64,000 bases of DNA from the NCBI RefSeq assembly GCF_003182475.1, contig NZ_QGTS01000001.1:167980-231979 (forward strand), in the 5' to 3' direction. Below, piece by piece: positions 1,722 to 13,496 of the stretch; position 1 is the first letter of the stretch; each line of letters starts with the position of its first letter. Both the position numbers and the translations under genes were made by a program. The notes beneath the pieces were generated by a model. The model was not told where the DNA came from. It saw only the letters and a list, made by a program, of their open reading frames with translations, and did not search any database. The DNA is from Mangrovibacter plantisponsor. Lineage in GTDB: Bacteria > Pseudomonadota > Gammaproteobacteria > Enterobacterales > Enterobacteriaceae.

Positions 1722-3374
<1,653 letters not shown>

Positions 3375-3375
<1 letters not shown>

Positions 3376-4052
3376 TGCCACATGCATTGGTCACTGGCGC
3401 CAGTTCAGGAATTGGTGCAGCCATTACAGAACGGCTTCTGGAAAGCGGCTGGTCAGTGACAGGAATCAGCCGTCGCCCGGCCAGCTACCCGAGCCAGGCA
3501 TTTCATAACCTGAATGTGGACATGAACGATTTACCCGCGCTCACCGCTGCGGTAACAGCCCTTGAAACAGTTGATGCTGTCATTCATGCTGCAGGTTTTA
3601 TGGCTGCTGCCCCACTGGGTATGCTGGATGCCGAACTCAGTGAACAATTGTGGCGCATCCATGTTCTGGCACCACAAGTATTACTTAATACCCTGGCACC
3701 ACGCATGCCCACAGGTGGGCGCATTGTGCTAATTGGCAGCCGTACCGCCCATGGTGCCGCCGGGCGTTCACAATATGTGTCCTGCAAAGCCGCAGTAATT
3801 GGTATGGTACGCAGTTGGGCCGCAGAATTGGCCCCCCGCGGCATAACAGCAAATATTGTGGCACCGGGTGCAACGCTTACACCAATGCTCTCTCAACCAG
3901 GCCGTGTTTCATCGCCACCTAAACTTCCCCCTATTGGCCGCTATATCGACCCAAAAGAAGTGGCTGCACTGGTCAATTTTTTGGTCTCGCCAGAAGCGGG
4001 GGCAATAACCGGCCAGGAATACATTATTTGTGGTGGCGCATCATTATCCTGA
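3375..4052 (+). CDS. SDR-family short-chain dehydrogenase/reductase
   Basis: N-terminal TGASSGIGAA Rossmann motif, 225 aa. ATG overlaps the upstream TAA (TAATG). Confidence 0.8.
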
Positions 4053-4571
4053 CCACTGTGCGCGTATATCGCTAAGGTTATACGCGCCATTTCAGCACCT
4101 TACCAGGCCAATAATCAGGCAGGAATTATTCTTTTAATTTGTCGATACCCACCACACAAAACACCCAGCCTAACGCATTGATATGTTTTATATTTTTTAA
4201 AACAAATAAAATATTACACTATATTCAATTGCAGGTAAAAATTGCCAACATTAGTTAGCCAGCCGGGAAAATTAAGCAGAATATTAGCACTTGCTTTGAA
4301 GAGAGATTATGGTAGGGTTGATATTAACAACATATTTACACAGGAAAAAACAAGATAACTAAAACACCCATCCTCATTTTAGCACAGTGCAAAAAACCGT
4401 TAAAAATTGATGGCGTTAATTTTGTTTTCACCATCATCCACATGAGCAAAAATCAATAATACGCCTGCTGCATATCAGCGCCGCCGCATTATTGATGTGT
4501 GCTCCAAAAAATCATAAATCCGCTCTGCTATGGCGGAGAATAATATGCACAACATCATAAGGAACCGTTCC

Positions 4572-5579: not shown

Positions 5580-5651
5580 CCTGGTTAATTGTGTTACCCC
5601 CCGCCAACTGCGGGGTAACCAAACTCAGAAAAGGTTACCTGAAGAGTACAA

Positions 5652-5690
5652 CCAGAAAGAAACCCGCGGGTTTCTTTCTGGTTTGTTTAT
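5652..5690. terminator. perfect 15-bp inverted repeat hairpin plus T-tract; bidirectional terminator between proX and the EF-hand gene
   Basis: ccagaaagaaacccg/cgggtttctttctgg followed by tttgtttat. Confidence 0.7.
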
Positions 5691-5727: not shown

Positions 5728-6000
5728 CTAACGGTGGGCAGCGACAAATGATTCAATCTGCGCCTGAGTGATACTGCCCGTACCCTGGGTATCAATTTCA
5801 CTAAAATGCTTCGCCACCATCGGCATACCCGCCTGCGCTTCTTGCAATGTCAGCTTACCATCATGGTTGGTATCCGCTTGTGAAAACCGCTGAGCCAATC
5901 TTGCAGATTGAGTGGCAGCAACAGCCAGTGTGGTACTGCCAGCCAGTGTGGTACTGCCAGCCAGTAACAACCCGGCCATTAAAAATGTACGTATTTTCAT
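5728..6000 (-). CDS. small secreted EF-hand calcium-binding protein
   Basis: Signal peptide. Canonical EF loop DTNHDGKLTLQE plus a second degenerate loop DTQGTGSITQAQ. 90 aa. Confidence 0.7.
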   Translation of the reverse strand: MKIRTFLMAGLLLAGSTTLAGSTTLAVAATQSARLAQRFSQADTNHDGKLTLQEAQAGMPMVAKHFSEIDTQGTGSITQAQIESFVAAHR

Positions 6001-6319
6001 TGTAGCATCCTTTTATTTTCGCAGAATTGCGGCGCTATTTATTCACCACAATTTTATTTATGGTTACCAGAATAAAATTATGTCACCTGATGTCGCCATG
6101 AATAAAACCAGTGACATGCCATGACATAATTCACCACTTCTGAAGTATGGAAAATAAAAATAGAATAATCAGTGCAGAGCAAACTATGGCCAACTGAGCA
6201 CCACAAGCCATTATTTTCGGTAATAAACTTTTGGTAATAAATACAGCCCACACACAGCAACCACTTAATTATCAACCTAAAAACTGAAATTCATTATTTA
6301 TTAATAAAGGCTTAGCACG

Positions 6320-6748
6320 ATGAATAATAAATCAATGAATAATAAACGATGCCAGCAGCTTATCGGTGTCCTGGGGTTATTATGCACTTTTTTAACCGTG
6401 GCACCCAGGCTTATGGCTGAAGAGCCGGAGCACATCAACCTGGTTTCTCCTGCCAGGCTGGTTATTATTACCCCGGCACATCCCCCGCGTTTGTTAGTGG
6501 CAGCACCACCTCCTCCTGTAGGCTCCAGAATGCCCCGTGGAATGTATTGGAAACCCAGGCCCCCTCATGGGCCTTCTCAGCCAGGCCATCCCGGGCAGCC
6601 AATGGCACCCAATGGGCAACCAGGAATGAAACAGCAACAACCAGGGCAACCGGGAGGTTCGCCGCAACAACCCGGGCAGCCACAACAGCCAGAAGGCGCG
6701 CCACAACAAGGTGAGCCGGGGTATGTTGCTCCAGCCACACATGCCTGA
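6320..6748 (+). CDS. secreted Pro/Gln/Gly-rich low-complexity protein of unknown function; first gene of the efflux operon
   Basis: Signal peptide (..APRLMA-EE). C-terminal PGQP/QQP repeats with scattered His/Met. 15 bp upstream of the MFP gene. Confidence 0.5.
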   Translation: MNNKSMNNKRCQQLIGVLGLLCTFLTVAPRLMAEEPEHINLVSPARLVIITPAHPPRLLVAAPPPPVGSRMPRGMYWKPRPPHGPSQPGHPGQPMAPNGQPGMKQQQPGQPGGSPQQPGQPQQPEGAPQQGEPGYVAPATHA

Positions 6749-6763
6749 GGAACGGTAACGATA

Positions 6764-7951
6764 ATGCAGTGGCCTGTTACTCTCAAACAAACGTTACTCA
6801 ATAACGCGGGCAAAATCAGCGTGCTTTTGCTGCTGGCTGCCATGCTGTGCACTATTGGGTATCTGTTACCTAAACGCACCCAGGTGTTTCGCCCAACGCG
6901 TGAAGTCCTGCACCAGTCATTCAGCGGCGCAGGCGAAATGGCAGCACTTAACCAGGCACAACTGTCCAGCAAAACGCCATTGCGCCTGCAGTCTCTGCTG
7001 GTTGATACGGGCGATAAAGTCAAACGAGGTGAACTCCTTGCCCAGTTTGATGACCAGGAGCTGCAGGCAGATGAGCAGGCAGCCAAAGCCGCCCTTGATG
7101 GAGCAGTGAGTAGTGAAGCCGCGGCACACACCAACTGGCTGCGCCAACAGCATATTGAGCAACAGGCCAAAGATGATGACCGCCGCGCACATATTCTGGC
7201 CCGCACAGGTAAAGGCGCGATTTCACAAAGCGACCTGGAAAATGCCAAAACCAGCCTGCAGACAGCCCAGCTAGACCTGGCGTCAGCCCGGTTCCAGTGG
7301 CAGCAGGCACAACACGCCCATACAGAGGCACAGGCACAATGGCGCGCCGCTCAGTCGCGCCTTGCGGATACCCGAATGGTGGCGCCATTCAGCGGCTTAA
7401 TTACCGGCAGAAAGTGCAGTGAAGGCGACATTATCTCCCCCGGCACAGCCTGTATTGAGTTAACCGATACTCAATCGCTGTACATCAGTGCACGCTTTGA
7501 TGAATCAGTACTGGGCACCATCCAGGTGGGTGACAGTTGCGAGGTTTTTCTGCGCTCACACCCGAACCAGGCCCTGCACGGCTATGTGGAGCGGATAAAC
7601 CGCAGCGTAGACAGCGACACGCGCGAATTCACCGCCAATATTGGGTTACCGGCCCTGCCCCCTGGCTGGGCGCTGGGTGAGCGAGCGGTTGTAGTTCTTC
7701 ACCACACCAGTGCGCAGCCTGTGCTTACCCTGCCAGAGCACCTGCTCACCCATGCAAACAGAGAAACCTGGGTTTGGTTGCTGGACAAAGGGCATGCGGT
7801 CTTGCGCAAGGTGCAAATTGGGCAACACACCGAACAGGCCAGTGAAATCACACAAGGGGTAACACCAGACAGCCTGGTACTGCCACCGGCCCACTACCGC
7901 CCCGGGCGGCGTATCAGCCCGGTCAGGAGCGAAGATGAATCTCGCGATTAA
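6764..7951 (+). CDS. efflux periplasmic adaptor / membrane fusion protein (HlyD family)
   Basis: N-terminal TM anchor, coiled-coil region rich in Q/A, C-terminal beta-barrel-like region. Overlaps the permease gene. Confidence 0.75.
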   Translation: MQWPVTLKQTLLNNAGKISVLLLLAAMLCTIGYLLPKRTQVFRPTREVLHQSFSGAGEMAALNQAQLSSKTPLRLQSLLVDTGDKVKRGELLAQFDDQELQADEQAAKAALDGAVSSEAAAHTNWLRQQHIEQQAKDDDRRAHILARTGKGAISQSDLENAKTSLQTAQLDLASARFQWQQAQHAHTEAQAQWRAAQSRLADTRMVAPFSGLITGRKCSEGDIISPGTACIELTDTQSLYISARFDESVLGTIQVGDSCEVFLRSHPNQALHGYVERINRSVDSDTREFTANIGLPALPPGWALGERAVVVLHHTSAQPVLTLPEHLLTHANRETWVWLLDKGHAVLRKVQIGQHTEQASEITQGVTPDSLVLPPAHYRPGRRISPVRSEDESRD

Positions 7952-9074
7952 AGACATTCGCGCGGGTCTGTTTCGCTTTACGCTAACCTGCGTGGGGATT
8001 GGTTTAATGCTGATGACATCGCTGGCTATGACTGGGTTGTATCAGGGGATCGTGGCAGATGCATTGTCCATTATTGACCACGCCCATGCAGATTTATGGG
8101 TAATTGAAGCCGGAACCGAAGGCCCGTTCGCCGAAAGCTCACTCATTGACCGCAGCGTACTGAGCCGTTCTCTGGCCTTACAGGATGTCGCAACCGCCCG
8201 GCAGTTTACCTTGCAATCAGAGCGTTTCAGCGTGCACGGTAAAACAGTGCGCGCATCACTGGTTGGGCTGGATTACCCAACAGATACCGGCAGCACTATT
8301 CCATTATCCGCAGGCCGCCACCTGCGTGCCGGGCGCAATGAAGCCATTGCAGACCAAAGTACCGGCCTGCATACCGGTGACACACTGCGCCTCGGCACAA
8401 CAGATCTCACCGTGGTGGGTGTGGCAAAGAACTACCAGGACTACAACGGTAACCCCATGGTTGCTGTGTCGGTTAATGATGCGCTGGATATCCAGGCTCA
8501 TCGCCCGGAAGAAAGTGTGTATATCTCGCGCGATACCGGGCGCGTCCAGGTGCCCAGTAAAACAGCTAATATTGCCGCAGTCCTGTTAACTCTGGTCCCC
8601 GGTGCCAACCTGCAGCAAGTGCAGCAACAAATAAACCGCTGGGGAGACGTTATCGCTCTGACCAGCGAACAGGAGCGAGAAGTCTTTTTGTATGGCAGGC
8701 TGGAGCGTTTACGGGGCCAGATAGTACTGTTCACAGCCATTTTACTGGTAGTAACCGCCGTTGTAATTGCGGTGACGCTCTACACCATGACACTGGAGAA
8801 ACTCCACGAAATTGCGCTCCTCAAACTGATTGGCGCGCGCAACCGTGTCATCATCAGTATGATTTTACAGCAGTCTATTGCTCTGGGTGCTCTGGGTTAC
8901 ACCATGGCAGCCGTGCTCATTCCCGTGGTATCACCTTTCTTTCCACGCCGCCTGGTACTGACACTCAATGATTACCTGCTGTTTGCAGTTATTGTTTTGC
9001 TGTTATGCATTGTTGGAGCGTTACTCGGTATCCGCCGTGCCATGCAGGTAGAAGCACGTGAGGTGCTGTCATGA
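7935..9074 (+). CDS. ABC transporter permease, FtsX/MacB-like (4 TM, large periplasmic domain)
   Basis: Topology TM1, ~220-aa periplasmic domain, then 3 TM, typical of DevC/LolC/MacB-type permeases. 4-nt overlap with the ATPase gene. Confidence 0.8.
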   Translation: MNLAIKDIRAGLFRFTLTCVGIGLMLMTSLAMTGLYQGIVADALSIIDHAHADLWVIEAGTEGPFAESSLIDRSVLSRSLALQDVATARQFTLQSERFSVHGKTVRASLVGLDYPTDTGSTIPLSAGRHLRAGRNEAIADQSTGLHTGDTLRLGTTDLTVVGVAKNYQDYNGNPMVAVSVNDALDIQAHRPEESVYISRDTGRVQVPSKTANIAAVLLTLVPGANLQQVQQQINRWGDVIALTSEQEREVFLYGRLERLRGQIVLFTAILLVVTAVVIAVTLYTMTLEKLHEIALLKLIGARNRVIISMILQQSIALGALGYTMAAVLIPVVSPFFPRRLVLTLNDYLLFAVIVLLLCIVGALLGIRRAMQVEAREVLS

Positions 9075-9793
9075 AACGTGCGGTCATTGAGCTCAGCGGT
9101 ATTACCAAGTGCTATGGCCAGGGCCTCACCCAGGTTACCGCCATCGCCAATGTCACGACCACGCTGTATGCCGGTGAAGTTGTTGCCCTGCTCGGCCCCA
9201 GTGGCTCGGGTAAATCCACCCTGCTGATGATTGCCGGGTTACTGGAATCCCCAACCCAGGGCACAGTGACTATTAACGGGTTGTCCGCCAGTGGCCCTGA
9301 TGCCGCAATTGGCAACGTGCGCGATTTCCGCCGCAAGAATATTGGCTTCGTTTTCCAGAAACCCAACCTGATCCCCTTTCTTACCGCCCAGGAGAATATT
9401 CGCCTGGCAATGGAAATCAATGACGTGCCAGCACCACAGCAAGCCCGAACACTCGCGGATTTACTCAGCTGGCTTGAAATTGAGCACCGGGCCAATAACT
9501 ACCCCGGGCAATTATCTGGCGGTGAGCAACAACGCGTGGCGATTGCCCGGGCTCTGGCAAACCACCCGCCACTGCTACTGGCCGATGAACCTACCGCAGC
9601 ACTGGACAGCAAGCGCGGGCGCCAGGTGGTGTCGCTGTTTCATAACATTGCGCATGAGCGAGATACCGCAGTAGTGCTGGTTACTCACGACCACCGCTGT
9701 CTGGACCTGGTAGACAGAATTCTGGAAATGGAAGATGGCCAGTTAGTTGAACGCCCCATGAATAGCGTGATAACTCACGATAAGCGAAACTGA
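9071..9793 (+). CDS. ABC transporter ATP-binding protein
   Basis: Walker [10 protein letters not shown], signature [15 protein letters not shown], Walker B LLLADEPT. Confidence 0.9.
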
Positions 9794-9796
9794 ACC

Positions 9797-11248
9797 ATGC
9801 GTGTTATGAACACTCTGTGTGCCTCACTGACTGCCCTGAGTATTGCTCTGAGCCTTAGTGGGTGCCATGCCCCTGCGCTGCCAAAAGACACTACACTGGC
9901 AATCCCCAACCGGTTTAACGCAACCAGCAGCGCCTCCACAACAGCACAACTGCGCCCGGACTGGTGGGTTGAGTTTAATGACACAACACTCAACTCACTG
10001 GTTCACCAGGCGCTGGAAAATAACCCCAATATTGCCGCATCGGCAGACCGCCTGAGCGCCGCAATGGCTCAGACAGCCCAGGCCCATGCAGACCGGTTGC
10101 CACAACTTTCACTGTCGCCACAAACCAGCCGACGCAAAGCATCAACCGCAACGGATAAACCCTGGAAAGTCAGCAGCAACGGCCACGAAAGCGCCCTCAG
10201 CAGTAGCGGCCTGTTTCTGGACACTCAACCCTATGCCACCGACTGGCAGGCACCGTTACAATTGAGCTGGGAAGTGGATCTGTGGGGAAAACTGCAAGCC
10301 AGTGAAAATGTAGCCGGGGCACAAGCAGAAGCCAGCCAGGAAGACCTGCGCAACGCCCGGTTATCATTGGTTGCCTCGGTTGCACAGGGTTACATCCAGT
10401 TGCGGGCCGACCAGGCCAGTGCACAACTGCTCAGTAAACAACAAGCGGTACAACAGGCATTATTCGAAAACAGCCAGGCCAGCCAGTCGGCGGGAATCAC
10501 CGACCTGACCGCAGCAACTCAGGCACAAATGGCATTGTTTGCGCTGAATAACCAGCAACAGGCGATGAGCCTGCATATTAGTGACGATATCCATACACTG
10601 GAGGTACTGTGCGGGCTGATGCCAGGTAGTTTGGCCGGTTTACGCAGCTCACAACACTGGCCGCTCAATTTACCTCAGACACCCGCCAGCCTGCCTGCCA
10701 GCGTGCTCAAACAGCGCCCGGATATTCGCCGTGATACCGACCAGTTGAATGCTGCCCGTGCTCAGGTGAAAGTCGCCCGGGCTGATTTTTTCCCGTCACT
10801 GAATCTCACCACCAGCCTGGGTACCGAGTCATCGAGCCTCTCTTCTTTGCTGAGCGCCGGCAGTCTGCTGTGGTCGTTAGGTGCCAGAATATCTCAACCC
10901 TTGTTTGACGGCGGGCGCCTGCAGGCAAATTACCAGGCAGCAACGGCACAATTTGAAGAAGCCGCGCATAATTACCAGGCCACAGTGATTCAGGCATTAA
11001 GTGATGTCGATAAAGGGTTAACCGCTCTGCAAATCAGCAAAACCAGCAGCGAAACCGCCACCAGACTCGTCACCGCTTCGGCACAGCTTACTGCACAACA
11101 ACAGGCGCGGTTTAGTGCAGGAATGGGTACTCAGGATGCCGTAAACCAGGCCCGGCTGAGTGAATACCAGCAGCAGTCGGCGCTGGTCACATCACAAACG
11201 GCAGCCTTGCAGGCCTGGCTGACATTACGCCAGGCGCTGGGTGAATAA
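9797..11248 (+). CDS. outer membrane efflux lipoprotein, TolC/NodT family
   Basis: Lipobox LSGC, two repeat halves typical of outer-membrane factors, 483 aa. Confidence 0.85.
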   Translation: MRVMNTLCASLTALSIALSLSGCHAPALPKDTTLAIPNRFNATSSASTTAQLRPDWWVEFNDTTLNSLVHQALENNPNIAASADRLSAAMAQTAQAHADRLPQLSLSPQTSRRKASTATDKPWKVSSNGHESALSSSGLFLDTQPYATDWQAPLQLSWEVDLWGKLQASENVAGAQAEASQEDLRNARLSLVASVAQGYIQLRADQASAQLLSKQQAVQQALFENSQASQSAGITDLTAATQAQMALFALNNQQQAMSLHISDDIHTLEVLCGLMPGSLAGLRSSQHWPLNLPQTPASLPASVLKQRPDIRRDTDQLNAARAQVKVARADFFPSLNLTTSLGTESSSLSSLLSAGSLLWSLGARISQPLFDGGRLQANYQAATAQFEEAAHNYQATVIQALSDVDKGLTALQISKTSSETATRLVTASAQLTAQQQARFSAGMGTQDAVNQARLSEYQQQSALVTSQTAALQAWLTLRQALGE

Positions 11249-11319
11249 CAGACCCAGGGTGAATAACAGGGTATGGGCAAATCAATCGCCCTGACAAATG
11301 GCGTGAGCGGCAACCCCAT

Positions 11320-12621
11320 TTACCGGTTCAGCGGCAACAGAACAGCTACCGCCAGCCCGCCAGTCGCGGAGGCAGATAAACGCAGTTGCCCACCATGCTG
11401 GCGGGCGATGCGCTCAACAATCGACAACCCCAGCCCGGCGCCTTTATCCTGGCGCGCCTTACCACGGTAAAATGGCCGAACAATATCAGGCCATTGTTCT
11501 GGTGGGATCCCAGGCCCGCTATCTGCCACTTCCACCACAGCCATGGGCCCTTCAAGGCGCGTAGACACATGCAAACCCGTTTGGCCGTATTTCACTGCAT
11601 TTTGCATCAGGTTCATCAGCGCACGCTGAACGGAAACTGGCCGCCAGGTGAACTCAGGTAACTCTGCCAGTTGCACAGTGAAATCCACACCAAGGCCCGC
11701 GTAATCTGCCACCAGCGCTTCTACCAGGTGATTGAGGTTACCCGGTTGCGCCACTTCGTTATCTTCTTTACGGGCGAAATCAATAAACTGCCCCAAAATG
11801 GCGTCAATGGCCGCAATGTAACGCTCGGCGTCTTTCTGCCCGGACTGAAACAACGCAGGTTCTGCAACCACCATGCGTAGCTTGGTCAGAGGGGTGCGAA
11901 TATCATGTGAAATCCCCGCCAGCATCTCTTCCCGGGCAGCATCACTACGCGCCAGTGTACTCACCATATGGTTAAACGCGCGGGTGACTGTCGCCAGCTC
12001 TTCAGGGCCCTGTGGTGGAACCGGCGCAGGCCACTCCCCGGTTGCTACCGTGCGCGCAGCCGCAGCCAGTTGGTTCAGTGGGCGCGAAAGACGCCAGTGG
12101 ATCCACGCAGCGCACAAAACGGGAAACAGCATAATAATAAAAGCGACCAGAACACCGGCAGCAGGCATCTGGTTGGAAATATGCTGAGCCGAAAAGGCTA
12201 TCCACCAGCCATCATCTTTACGCAGGCGAACCCACAAACGCCGCTGCTCACCATATTCCCAATGCAGTGTCACACCGGGAGGTAACTGGCGCGACAGTTG
12301 CGCGAAAAAGTGATGCAGCATCATGCCTTCTGGCAGGCTGTCATGCCGTGCGGCTGTAGGCAGTTCGCTGTCAGGAATTCCATGCATATTGATTAATTGC
12401 TGGCGGCGCTCTTCGGGCGTCAGTGTTGCGAACAACTGGTTTATCATGCTGATCTGCTGGCTGACCAGTGCGGCTGCATCATCTACCCGGGGAAACTGCA
12501 CCAGGCGAATCCACACGAACCACGCAGAAGCAAAACAGAGCAAAACCATTGGGATAAGCAAAGCGAGGTTGCGGCCGAGTAGAGACCGAAATAAGCGTTT
12601 GTTGAACACAGAGCCTGGCAT
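11320..12621 (-). CDS. two-component sensor histidine kinase (2 TM, periplasmic sensor, HAMP, HisKA, HATPase)
   Basis: H-box AGISHDIRTPL plus N, G1 and G2 boxes (DSGPGIP, GAGLGLSIV). Confidence 0.85.
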   Translation of the reverse strand: MPGSVFNKRLFRSLLGRNLALLIPMVLLCFASAWFVWIRLVQFPRVDDAAALVSQQISMINQLFATLTPEERRQQLINMHGIPDSELPTAARHDSLPEGMMLHHFFAQLSRQLPPGVTLHWEYGEQRRLWVRLRKDDGWWIAFSAQHISNQMPAAGVLVAFIIMLFPVLCAAWIHWRLSRPLNQLAAAARTVATGEWPAPVPPQGPEELATVTRAFNHMVSTLARSDAAREEMLAGISHDIRTPLTKLRMVVAEPALFQSGQKDAERYIAAIDAILGQFIDFARKEDNEVAQPGNLNHLVEALVADYAGLGVDFTVQLAELPEFTWRPVSVQRALMNLMQNAVKYGQTGLHVSTRLEGPMAVVEVADSGPGIPPEQWPDIVRPFYRGKARQDKGAGLGLSIVERIARQHGGQLRLSASATGGLAVAVLLPLNR

Positions 12622-12722
12622 GTGTGCTCCTGTTACTCAGAATAACCAGGTGGGAATGAAGCCGGGCTTGTTAAGACCTGGCAGGTTTGAGCGCTAAAAG
12701 GCAGGTGAGCACTGGCACGTTG

Positions 12723-13496
12723 TCAGGCAATAACCTCACCGGATAACAAATAGCCTTTCCCCCACACAGTGCGCAACCAGCGTGGTTCGGACGGGTTCTG
12801 CTCAATGATTTTGCGAATACGCAACACCTGTACATCCACACTGCGGTCAAGTGCCACATAGCTGCGCCCGCGCGCGCGGGCAATTAAATTATCGCGGCTT
12901 ACCGGGCGGTTAAGCGTGGTCGCCAGCGCCACCAACAAGCTGATTTCTGCAGTATTGACCTCTACAGGCGTGCCCAAATGTGTCAGCAGTGACTGCGCCA
13001 GATCCAGCTCAAACTCACCAAAACGCACTTTTTTGGGCGCAGCCGGGTTTTCGCCCCCCAGCATACGCTGGCGGCGCAAAATAGCCCGGACACGAGCCAA
13101 CAGTTCCTGTGGAATAAAGGGCTTAGCGAGGTAATCATCAGCGCCACTTTCCAGGCCGGTTATCCGGTCTACCGGGTCGCCACGGGCGGTGAGCATCAAC
13201 ACCGGTAAAGTGTGCCCTTCTGCACGTATGCGGCGGCACACACTCAGGCCATCTTCCGGTGTCATCATTAAATCGAGGATAAGTAAATCCCAGGGAGAGC
13301 GGGCCAGCAGAACATCAAGCCGGGCGCTGTCCGCAATAGCCTGGACACGAAACCCATGCGCCTGCAGGTAATGCTGCAACATTTGGCGCAATTCACTTTC
13401 GTCATCCAGCACAATGATGCTGGCCTGGTTTTCCACTAAGCCCTGAGAGGTCACGCTGGTTTCTCCAACCTGAGTGTTACGGACTGACTGTAGCAC
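12723..13496 (-). CDS. OmpR-family response regulator (true start possibly the GTG at 13436)
   Basis: Receiver motifs (ILDLMMTP.DG, LTARG..D) and a winged-helix C-terminal domain. The N-terminal 20 aa of the ORF are probably not translated. Confidence 0.85.
   Translation of the reverse strand: MLQSVRNTQVGETSVTSQGLVENQASIIVLDDESELRQMLQHYLQAHGFRVQAIADSARLDVLLARSPWDLLILDLMMTPEDGLSVCRRIRAEGHTLPVLMLTARGDPVDRITGLESGADDYLAKPFIPQELLARVRAILRRQRMLGGENPAAPKKVRFGEFELDLAQSLLTHLGTPVEVNTAEISLLVALATTLNRPVSRDNLIARARGRSYVALDRSVDVQVLRIRKIIEQNPSEPRWLRTVWGKGYLLSGEVIA

Follow-up and report, generated by a model that had tools for sequence, protein, structure and literature searches.

A genus-restricted secreted protein as a possible accessory of a regulator-linked type VII ABC efflux module in Mangrovibacter

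We examined a small gene at the head of a tripartite efflux operon in Mangrovibacter plantisponsor, within a 64,000-nt stretch of contig NZ_QGTS01000001.1 (positions 167,980–231,979; hereafter the window, whose positions serve as coordinates throughout). The gene (6320–6748, + strand) encodes a 142-aa secreted Pro/Gln/Gly-rich protein, and an exact-sequence look-up identified the product as WP_110024514.1 of M. plantisponsor, annotated as 'hypothetical protein'; we refer to it as the orphan. Comparative evidence indicates that the orphan is a real gene under purifying selection weaker than that on its neighbours, that it is restricted to the genus Mangrovibacter, and that it is dispensable in at least one strain. 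We tentatively favour the reading that it is a genus-specific and dispensable periplasmic add-on to a regulator-controlled envelope-stress/efflux module.

The selection pattern of the open reading frame (ORF) argues that it is translated. The frame is open in all four aligned loci (M. plantisponsor, a near-identical NCBI contig, a JGI metagenome contig and M. yixingensis), and intact copies were found in M. plantisponsor, strain MFB070, M. yixingensis and two metagenome contigs. Indels inside the ORF are all multiples of three (a 102-bp deletion, a 30-bp insertion at the 5' end, and changes of −9, +6 and −3 bp); the neighbouring intergenic indel, just 5' of the ORF, is 14 bp, which is not an in-frame size. 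Between the window and M. yixingensis, the differences at codon positions 1, 2 and 3 number 21, 12 and 46 respectively, and the ratio of non-synonymous to synonymous divergence (dN/dS, Nei–Gojobori) is 0.22 at a dS of 0.62, compared with 0.02–0.14 for the neighbouring genes and 0.035, against M. yixingensis, for the EF-hand protein gene on the other side of the control region. The orphan has the highest dN/dS of the region, at 0.22–0.54. The first ATG is preceded, at a distance of 8–9 nt, by a conserved Shine–Dalgarno-like AAGG(G). The 5' end of the ORF is itself a 15-bp tandem repeat, ATGAATAATAAAnnn (encoding MNNKx; window 6320–6349, and 6362–6421 in locus L006), which is present in two copies in M. 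plantisponsor and four in M. yixingensis, so that the n-region of the signal peptide and the number of in-frame ATGs vary between the species. The sequence GTAATAAA, which occurs in the upstream region, recurs within the 15-bp repeats at the M. yixingensis ORF start.

Codons 1–33 (6320–6418, +) encode a putative signal peptide with predicted cleavage after LMA, a heuristic call made by inspection and hydropathy and accompanied by a helix in the AlphaFold2 (AF2) model and by the alignment. Its n-region is positive (K4, K9 and R10), its hydrophobic core spans residues 14–27 with the hydropathy peak at 11–27, and the cleavage motif (V/L)-x-A|EE is conserved in three species. We infer that the product is Sec-exported and cleaved after residue 33. 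The mature protein would have 109 aa and no cysteine, with 26% Pro, 13% Gly and 13% Gln. It begins with a conserved core (codons 34–79; 6419–6556, +), EEPxHINLVSPARLVIITPAHPPRLLVAAPPPPxGxRMPRGMYxKP, which is kept in all variants, a truncated 79-aa one included; in the alignment this is followed by a variable low-complexity Pro/Gln/Gly tail (6557–6700, +), whose length differs between alleles, and by a conserved C-terminal motif, PQQ(G/S)EPGxVAPATHA (6701–6745, +). AF2, run on an alignment of three sequences, gave a helix at residues 4–27, corresponding to the signal peptide, and no other secondary structure (mean pLDDT 54), and on this model the mature protein is probably intrinsically disordered.

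A first-pass annotation of the window, made from the sequence alone, had already described a 142-aa signal-peptide protein encoded 15 nt before an adaptor gene, and the ORF map and inspection agree with this. It had also ascribed to the protein a disordered, collagen-like PGQP/QQP tail. The tail is indeed Pro/Gln/Gly-rich and has no structure in the AF2 model, but its likeness to collagen was ruled out, as the Gly-to-Gly spacing is irregular (5,3,7,3,7,3,1,6,7,5,3), with at most two consecutive G-X-Y triplets and no uninterrupted (G-X-Y)n. Several other identities were rejected. The protein is not a lipoprotein, having no lipobox and a cysteine that is a serine in M. yixingensis; no Pfam match places it in the CpxP/Spy/ZraP family (LTXXQ, PF07813); and an apidaecin-like PRPPH motif and a TonB box were dropped because their residues are not conserved in M. 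yixingensis.

The searches for relatives returned the orphan from Mangrovibacter only. A word-indexed search of 5.8e9 clustered proteins gave only two matches, both on Mangrovibacter-type contigs, and an exhaustive phmmer search of 1.84e9 representatives gave one Mangrovibacter match, already known from the clustered search, plus one artefact, the repetitive protein P0123 (E = 2e-4), which was rejected as a homologue. No match was obtained in Pfam, NCBIfam or the PDB sequences. Six-frame HMM and tblastn comparisons across 85 related loci (our comparison set of 80 genome loci and five contigs) likewise found no indication that the orphan is a diverged or frameshifted copy of a Cys-rich, EF-hand or fatty-acid hydroxylase gene or of any other gene of the window.

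Natural alleles bear directly on how far the orphan is needed. In the metagenome variant P0002, nucleotides 6599–6700 are deleted, which removes 34 tail codons. In L086 (Logan SRR30193479, 3001–3455), a 72-kb contig from a Mangrovibacter strain with 97% DNA identity in this region, codon 80 has changed from AGG to TGA to give a 79-aa product; the normal stop has changed from TGA to TCA, a gap of 204 nt precedes the adaptor gene, and the pump genes after the nonsense codon are intact. The closest pump locus outside the genus, L003, whose permease is 68% identical, has no small ORF between its kinase and adaptor genes. Conservation of the orphan in relatives carrying the pump had been set beforehand as a test of the first-pass proposal, and it was not found. 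Because the orphan is confined to one genus, absent from L003, shortened in its tail in one variant and truncated by a nonsense codon in one strain, it cannot be a core pump subunit or a general component of this pump family.

The genes that follow the orphan are those of a complete efflux system, and the Pfam and NCBIfam matches agree with the identities first proposed for them. The orphan stop codon (6746–6748) is separated by 15 nt from the ATG at 6764 of a gene for a membrane fusion protein (MFP), the periplasmic adaptor (6764–7951, +; 395 aa), which has an N-terminal membrane anchor and matches HlyD_D23, HlyD_3 and TIGR01730 (RND_mfp; 159.3 bits, cut-off 94.9). The permease gene (7935–9074, +; 379 aa) overlaps it by 17 nt and encodes a MacB/FtsX-type protein with MacB_PCD and FtsX domains (PF12704, 53.1 bits, cut-off 27; PF02687, 36.5 bits, cut-off 25.5), for which the nearest solved structure is HrtB (7w78, E = 4e-9). 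A separate ATPase gene (9071–9793, +; 240 aa; ABC_tran, 129 bits) overlaps the permease gene by 4 nt, and it is followed by a gene for an outer-membrane factor (OMF), a 483-aa NodT-family lipoprotein with the lipobox LSGC (9797–11248, +), matching Pfam OEP and TIGR01845 (294.4 bits, above the cut-off of 210). We infer that the orphan is co-transcribed with the pump genes, because the gap is only 15 nt, no terminator-like site was found between the orphan and the MFP gene, and downstream genes overlap. Two further observations concern the pump genes. The direct repeat GGTGAATAACAG occurs twice, 18 bp apart, across the OMF stop codon (11240–11269), and looks like a duplication of the 3' end of the OMF gene. 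The permease annotated in Mangrovibacter sp. SLW1 (P0043) is a fragment of 217 aa that matches 44% of the query at 97% identity; this strain may have a disrupted pump, or the assembly may be wrong there.

By sequence, the permease is a divergent type VII ABC (MacB/FtsX) protein, and the locus encodes every component of a type VII ABC tripartite pump: a MacB_PCD plus FtsX permease, an ATPase, an adaptor and an OMF. The first-pass annotation had likened the operon to DevBCA and LolCDE more than to MacAB. The organisational part of this comparison stands, since permease and ATPase are split and the genes follow the devB-devC-devA order, but membership does not, as all of the NCBIfam models score below their cut-offs. 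The scores were 225.6 bits against 295.8 for DevA, 28.1 against 290.35 for DevC and 44.4 against 129 for DevB; for the Lol system they were 28.9 against 362.45 (LolC/E) and 190.2 against 307.75 (LolD), and the adaptor and OMF also argue against LolCDE. MacB proper (NF007826) was rejected as well, with 181 bits for the ATPase against a cut-off of 966 and with ATPase and permease in separate genes. Thus, as judged by the model scores, the pump is DevBCA-like in organisation but lies outside that family. DevBCA–HgdD shares the split permease and ATPase and the adaptor–permease–ATPase order, and DevA is the best NCBIfam model for the ATPase; however, it is a cyanobacterial glycolipid exporter, unlike the Mangrovibacter locus in taxon and gene context. 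MacAB–TolC shares the MacB_PCD plus FtsX permease, the periplasmic adaptor and the outer-membrane duct, whereas its ATPase and permease are fused in MacB; unlike MacAB–TolC, the Mangrovibacter pump has its own NodT-type OMF in the operon and a dedicated adjacent two-component system.

That two-component system lies immediately downstream on the opposite strand, as had been noted, and is convergent with the pump operon. It consists of an EnvZ-like sensor histidine kinase with a periplasmic loop (11320–12621, −; HAMP-HisKA-HATPase_c) and an OmpR-family response regulator (12723–13454, −, the longest ORF reaching 13496; Response_reg plus Trans_reg_C), the true start of which is probably the GTG at 13454, with GGAGA directly 5' of it. 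The pair was rejected as the EnvZ/OmpR osmoregulation pair itself, since both proteins score below the equivalog cut-offs (EnvZ, 260.9 against 415 bits; OmpR, 276.3 against 331 bits), and by these scores and their location the two are EnvZ/OmpR paralogues travelling with the pump. At the other end of the island stands the EF-hand gene (5728–6000, −), encoding the conserved small protein of the module, which is secreted and matches Pfam EF-hand_6/1/7. Its signal peptide contains an in-frame duplication of 18 bp (AGSTTL AGSTTL; 5926–5961, −) that brings the protein to 90 aa in the window; its counterparts from M. yixingensis, L001 and L086 have 84 aa. The gene proX is convergent with the EF-hand gene, and a perfect 15-bp-stem hairpin between the two (5650–5683) is probably a strong bidirectional terminator and bounds the island on the left; Rfam gave a Thr_leader match at this hairpin, below threshold, which was judged spurious.

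We then compared the pump with its relatives. Permease identity is 97% within Mangrovibacter, 68%, 64% and 59% for the metagenomic contigs L003–L005, 60% for Methyloversatilis (L007), ~52% for Acidobacteriota and ~45% for Alphaproteobacteria. This homology pattern, within an enterobacterial genome, indicates that the module was probably acquired horizontally by Mangrovibacter; the island has ~56% G+C and much of the window ~49–51%. Four loci (L030–L033) have identical permease sequences, coordinates and scores under the labels Aureimonas, Consotaella, Shinella and Pseudochrobactrum, which points to cross-contamination or to a mobile element that was shared very recently. The MFP–permease–ATPase trio is invariant across the compared loci, the OMF gene is confined to the beta/gamma clade and one other locus, and an OmpR-type regulator and a HAMP kinase adjoin the pump in ~50 of the 80 loci.

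Among the loci with full flanks, a small secreted protein gene is present in 29 of the 32 with a two-component system and in none of the 21 without one; Fisher's test gives p = 6e-12, a value not to be taken at face value as both traits are clade-structured on the permease tree, which implies few events, yet across two deeply separated clades. The small proteins are of two types, one with a single 'cysteine rich repeat' (PF00839; C..D...C...PGGGRI..CL....L.P.C) and the other an EF-hand protein. The gene is often the first of the pump operon, 0–20 nt before the MFP gene (0 nt in L005, 1 nt in L045, 4 nt in L071 and 18 nt in L007), and EF-hand homologues lie directly 5' of the MFP gene in L005, L007, L040, L041, L043, L051, L053 and L085. 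Thus the expected linkage of a conserved small protein to the pump does not hold for the orphan itself, but non-homologous Cys-rich and EF-hand proteins occupy the same slot.

One alphaproteobacterial subclade carries the Cys-rich gene in the operon of the two-component system, behind a gene for a secreted LTXXQ protein of the CpxP/Spy/ZraP family, an arrangement which ties the small proteins to signalling or stress rather than to the pump alone. The LTXXQ-family protein (~175–190 aa) is encoded between the kinase and Cys-rich genes in L021, L025, L036, L047 and L049 (~2900–4100, −); in a scan of the homologues from L021, L036, L047 and L049, one protein reached the PF07813 cut-off and three stayed below it. 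In 14 loci a fatty-acid hydroxylase/sterol desaturase gene (PF04116; e.g. 2294–3151 in L004 and 3165–4067 in L007) lies between the small secreted protein gene and the MFP gene, a position that hints that some members of the module act on lipid. The fullest version is that of Methyloversatilis, in which the regulator and kinase genes are divergent from a series Cys-rich – hydroxylase – EF-hand – MFP – permease – ATPase – OMF. Mangrovibacter has retained the EF-hand gene alone, in inverted orientation, and its first-gene slot is taken by the orphan.

Between the EF-hand gene and the orphan, interspecies alignment delimits an AT-rich divergent control region of 319 bp (6001–6319), which is more conserved between the Mangrovibacter species than the synonymous sites of the flanking genes: positions 6097–6210 are ~90% identical, with a flanking-gene dS of 0.3–0.6. 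Pattern matching revealed two candidate response-regulator boxes in it. Box 1 (6081–6096, +), TGTCAC-CTGA-TGTCGC, is a direct repeat (period 10 bp) that points towards the pump operon, and box 2 (6111–6126, −), TGTCAT-GGCA-TGTCAC, faces the EF-hand gene; one box lies in each arm of an inverted repeat, I3 (6076–6094 and 6113–6131). The pattern TGTCRYN5GTCRY, which was derived post hoc, has three matches in the 64 kb, compared with 0.32 expected, and two of the three fall in the control region. The box is also present in the regulator/pump intergenic region of the beta/gamma relatives L004, L005 and L007, and its spacing from the EF-hand ATG is similar in the window (box 2, ~111 bp upstream) and in L005 (~113 bp upstream). 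Sequences resembling a −10 element, CATAAT, occur at 6122–6127 (+) and 6082–6077 (−), 25–28 bp from the respective boxes. This arrangement suggests two fully overlapping, activator-dependent divergent promoters, which were recognised by eye. A sigma-70 consensus scan gave no more matches than shuffled sequences and none that was useful, no Rfam family was detected in the control region, and the putative 5' leader has no stable fold, being no better than shuffled sequences (z = +0.61). The region also contains a conserved 16-codon mini-ORF (6147–6197; MENKNRIISAEQTMAN), in which the substitutions show no synonymous bias, and a 14-bp tandem duplication, TTTYGGTAATAAAC (6215–6241), that is single-copy in L001 and L006. 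The suggestion that the two-component system may control the operon gains from these comparisons: because the system adjoins the pump in ~50 of 80 loci and a direct-repeat box is shared between promoter regions, the two are very likely to be functionally tied.

On the reading that we favour, the island is an eight-gene envelope module made up of the divergent EF-hand gene, the operon orphan–MFP–permease–ATPase–OMF and the convergent two-component system. The island's own response regulator would probably switch on both the operon and the EF-hand gene through the two inverted TGTCRY-N4-NGTCRY boxes at 6081–6126. The orphan would then be induced with them as a periplasmic partner; it might, for instance, bind or buffer the substances that the pump handles, or modulate the periplasmic domains of the kinase or the pump, and it would fill the slot held in related operons by Cys-rich-repeat, EF-hand or CpxP/Spy-family proteins. 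An accessory role is favoured because the small secreted proteins track the two-component system and not the pump, because their genes can accompany a CpxP/Spy-like gene, and because the orphan is not needed for the pump. Small periplasmic proteins produced together with a two-component system are the logic of the Cpx, Bae and Zra envelope-stress systems of E. coli.

Several points weigh against this reading. The signal peptide of the orphan was judged by eye, and the disorder call comes from an alignment of only three sequences. The loci used to count the box motif are those that had yielded it post hoc, neither L003 nor the alphaproteobacterial loci contain it, and box 1 lies ~240 bp upstream of the ORF, so another promoter is possible. 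The co-occurrence statistic overstates independence, given the clade structure of the traits, and small genes coupled so tightly to the MFP gene could equally well encode cargo.

This last point leads to the main alternative, in which the orphan is delivered unfolded to the periplasm by Sec and expelled by the pump through the MFP/OMF duct, and the Cys-rich and EF-hand proteins of related operons are equivalent cargos. We consider this possible, if on the unlikely side. There are precedents, as MacAB–TolC exports the Sec-delivered enterotoxin STII and the Aat system exports dispersin, and MacB-type pumps take periplasmic proteins up to ~10 kDa (PMC5985334). As with STII, a small Sec-exported protein is encoded here with the pump, and the Mangrovibacter pump also probably takes periplasmic substrates (PMC5985334). 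The signal peptide, the position as first gene 15 nt before the MFP gene and the OMF encoded in the operon all fit such a role, as do the positional analogues, which are small (~60–70 aa when mature), secreted and encoded 0–20 nt before the MFP gene. Moreover, a Cys-free disordered chain would be easy to thread, and rapid evolution with a variable tail is typical of extracellular proteins. However, the pump family greatly exceeds the orphan in age and breadth, and many of its members lack any small gene; the small secreted genes follow the two-component system, sometimes within its operon and beside a CpxP/Spy-like gene; and in one strain a nonsense allele coexists with an intact pump. A different explanation, which we regard as unlikely, is that the orphan is a young gene, perhaps arisen de novo in the leader left by inversion of the EF-hand gene, whose product is translated and weakly constrained with no link to the pump. 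The lack of any homologue outside the genus or of similarity to anything else in the 85 loci would be expected of such a gene, as would the highest dN/dS of the region, the low-complexity tail with its length polymorphism and the nonsense allele, and the arrangement departs from that of L005 and L007, in which the MFP gene comes straight after the EF-hand gene. On the other hand, dN/dS is clearly below 1 over ~0.6 synonymous substitutions per site, and all of the full-length alleles keep the reading frame, the cleavage motif and the motifs of the core and the C-terminus.

Metal binding had been raised as an option on account of the scattered His and Met residues, and these are present: five His and the methionines of RMPxGMY are largely conserved between the species, although the conservation of the five His is not significant at 77% overall identity. 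The orphan could then be a metal sponge or chaperone, like SilE/PcoE or PA4063, for a metal sensed or handled by the module, which includes a Ca-binding EF-hand protein. SilE is a disordered periplasmic 'molecular sponge' for Ag and Cu, of similar size and found beside a two-component system and a tripartite pump (PMC5008109), and PA4063 is a periplasmic Zn-binding protein encoded beside a MacB-like ABC system (PMC8561739, PMC11481552). Like the orphan, both are small, have a signal peptide, are partly or fully disordered and are encoded beside an efflux system and a regulator. Unlike them, the orphan has no HxxM or MxxH (SilE-type) motif in any of its alleles, contains few His and Met residues (together 8% of the mature protein), has no Cys, and shows sequence similarity neither to these proteins nor to any metal-binding family. 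MacB-type pumps are not known to pump ions. We therefore regard a metal-binding function as distinctly improbable. Less probable by far is a SecM/VemP-type arrest or leader peptide, in which polyproline or secretion-dependent stalling near the C-terminus would control MFP translation. The signal peptide, the PPPP motif and other Pro runs, and the conservation of the last 14 residues, which end 15 nt before the MFP start, are compatible with it. But no stable or covarying RNA structure masks the MFP ribosome-binding site (z = −0.12 at the ORF/MFP junction, with 0 compensatory pairs), the best-conserved part of the protein is the N-terminal mature core rather than the C-terminus, and the nonsense allele is followed by intact pump genes.

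The accessory reading also finds parallels in known regulator-linked systems. In E. coli, the BaeSR–MdtABCD–Spy and CpxAR–CpxP two-component systems act in envelope stress and co-regulate small periplasmic proteins. The Mangrovibacter island resembles the Bae and Cpx arrangements in having a two-component system beside a tripartite pump together with small periplasmic proteins, and the LTXXQ gene of the related loci adds to the similarity; however, the Bae pump is of the RND type and that of Mangrovibacter a type VII ABC pump, the kinase and regulator are EnvZ/OmpR-like, and the orphan is not an LTXXQ protein. The BceRS–BceAB system of the Firmicutes likewise couples a MacB-related ABC transporter genomically to a two-component system (PMC5985334). 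Its coupling of transporter and regulator is common to both, whereas the Bce system is Gram-positive, has a 10-TM permease and an intramembrane-sensing kinase, and is without adaptor, OMF or small secreted protein.

Taken individually, the pump, the adaptor, the duct and the regulator belong to known superfamilies and are unremarkable. Their association is a different matter, as no description of this module, with its two-component system, Cys-rich, EF-hand or LTXXQ proteins and split MacB-type pump, was found in the searchable literature; the comparison thus brings out a conserved, undescribed association of a split MacB-type pump, an OmpR-type system and Cys-rich, EF-hand and LTXXQ proteins across Alpha-, Beta- and Gammaproteobacteria. 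A broader proposal, which the sequence comparisons lead us to put forward as speculative and rather unlikely, is that this is a widespread proteobacterial module in which an OmpR-type system and a split MacB-type pump are combined with a first-gene slot in which small proteins exported by Sec, whether Cys-rich, EF-hand or CpxP/Spy-like, can replace one another, and that in Mangrovibacter a disordered protein of de novo origin has been recruited into the slot as a new partner or cargo. If this were true, the module would correspond, in Gram-negative bacteria, to the Bce-type modules for sensing and detoxification, or else would be dedicated to the secretion of small proteins. If the small proteins are cargos or co-sensors of the kinase, the type VII ABC systems would gain a new functional subclass, and substrates or signals, such as Ca2+ or envelope stress, would be suggested for pumps at present annotated just as 'ABC transporter permease'. 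For Mangrovibacter itself, the orphan, with its natural truncation and deletion alleles, is well suited to studying how an envelope system comes to take up a young gene.

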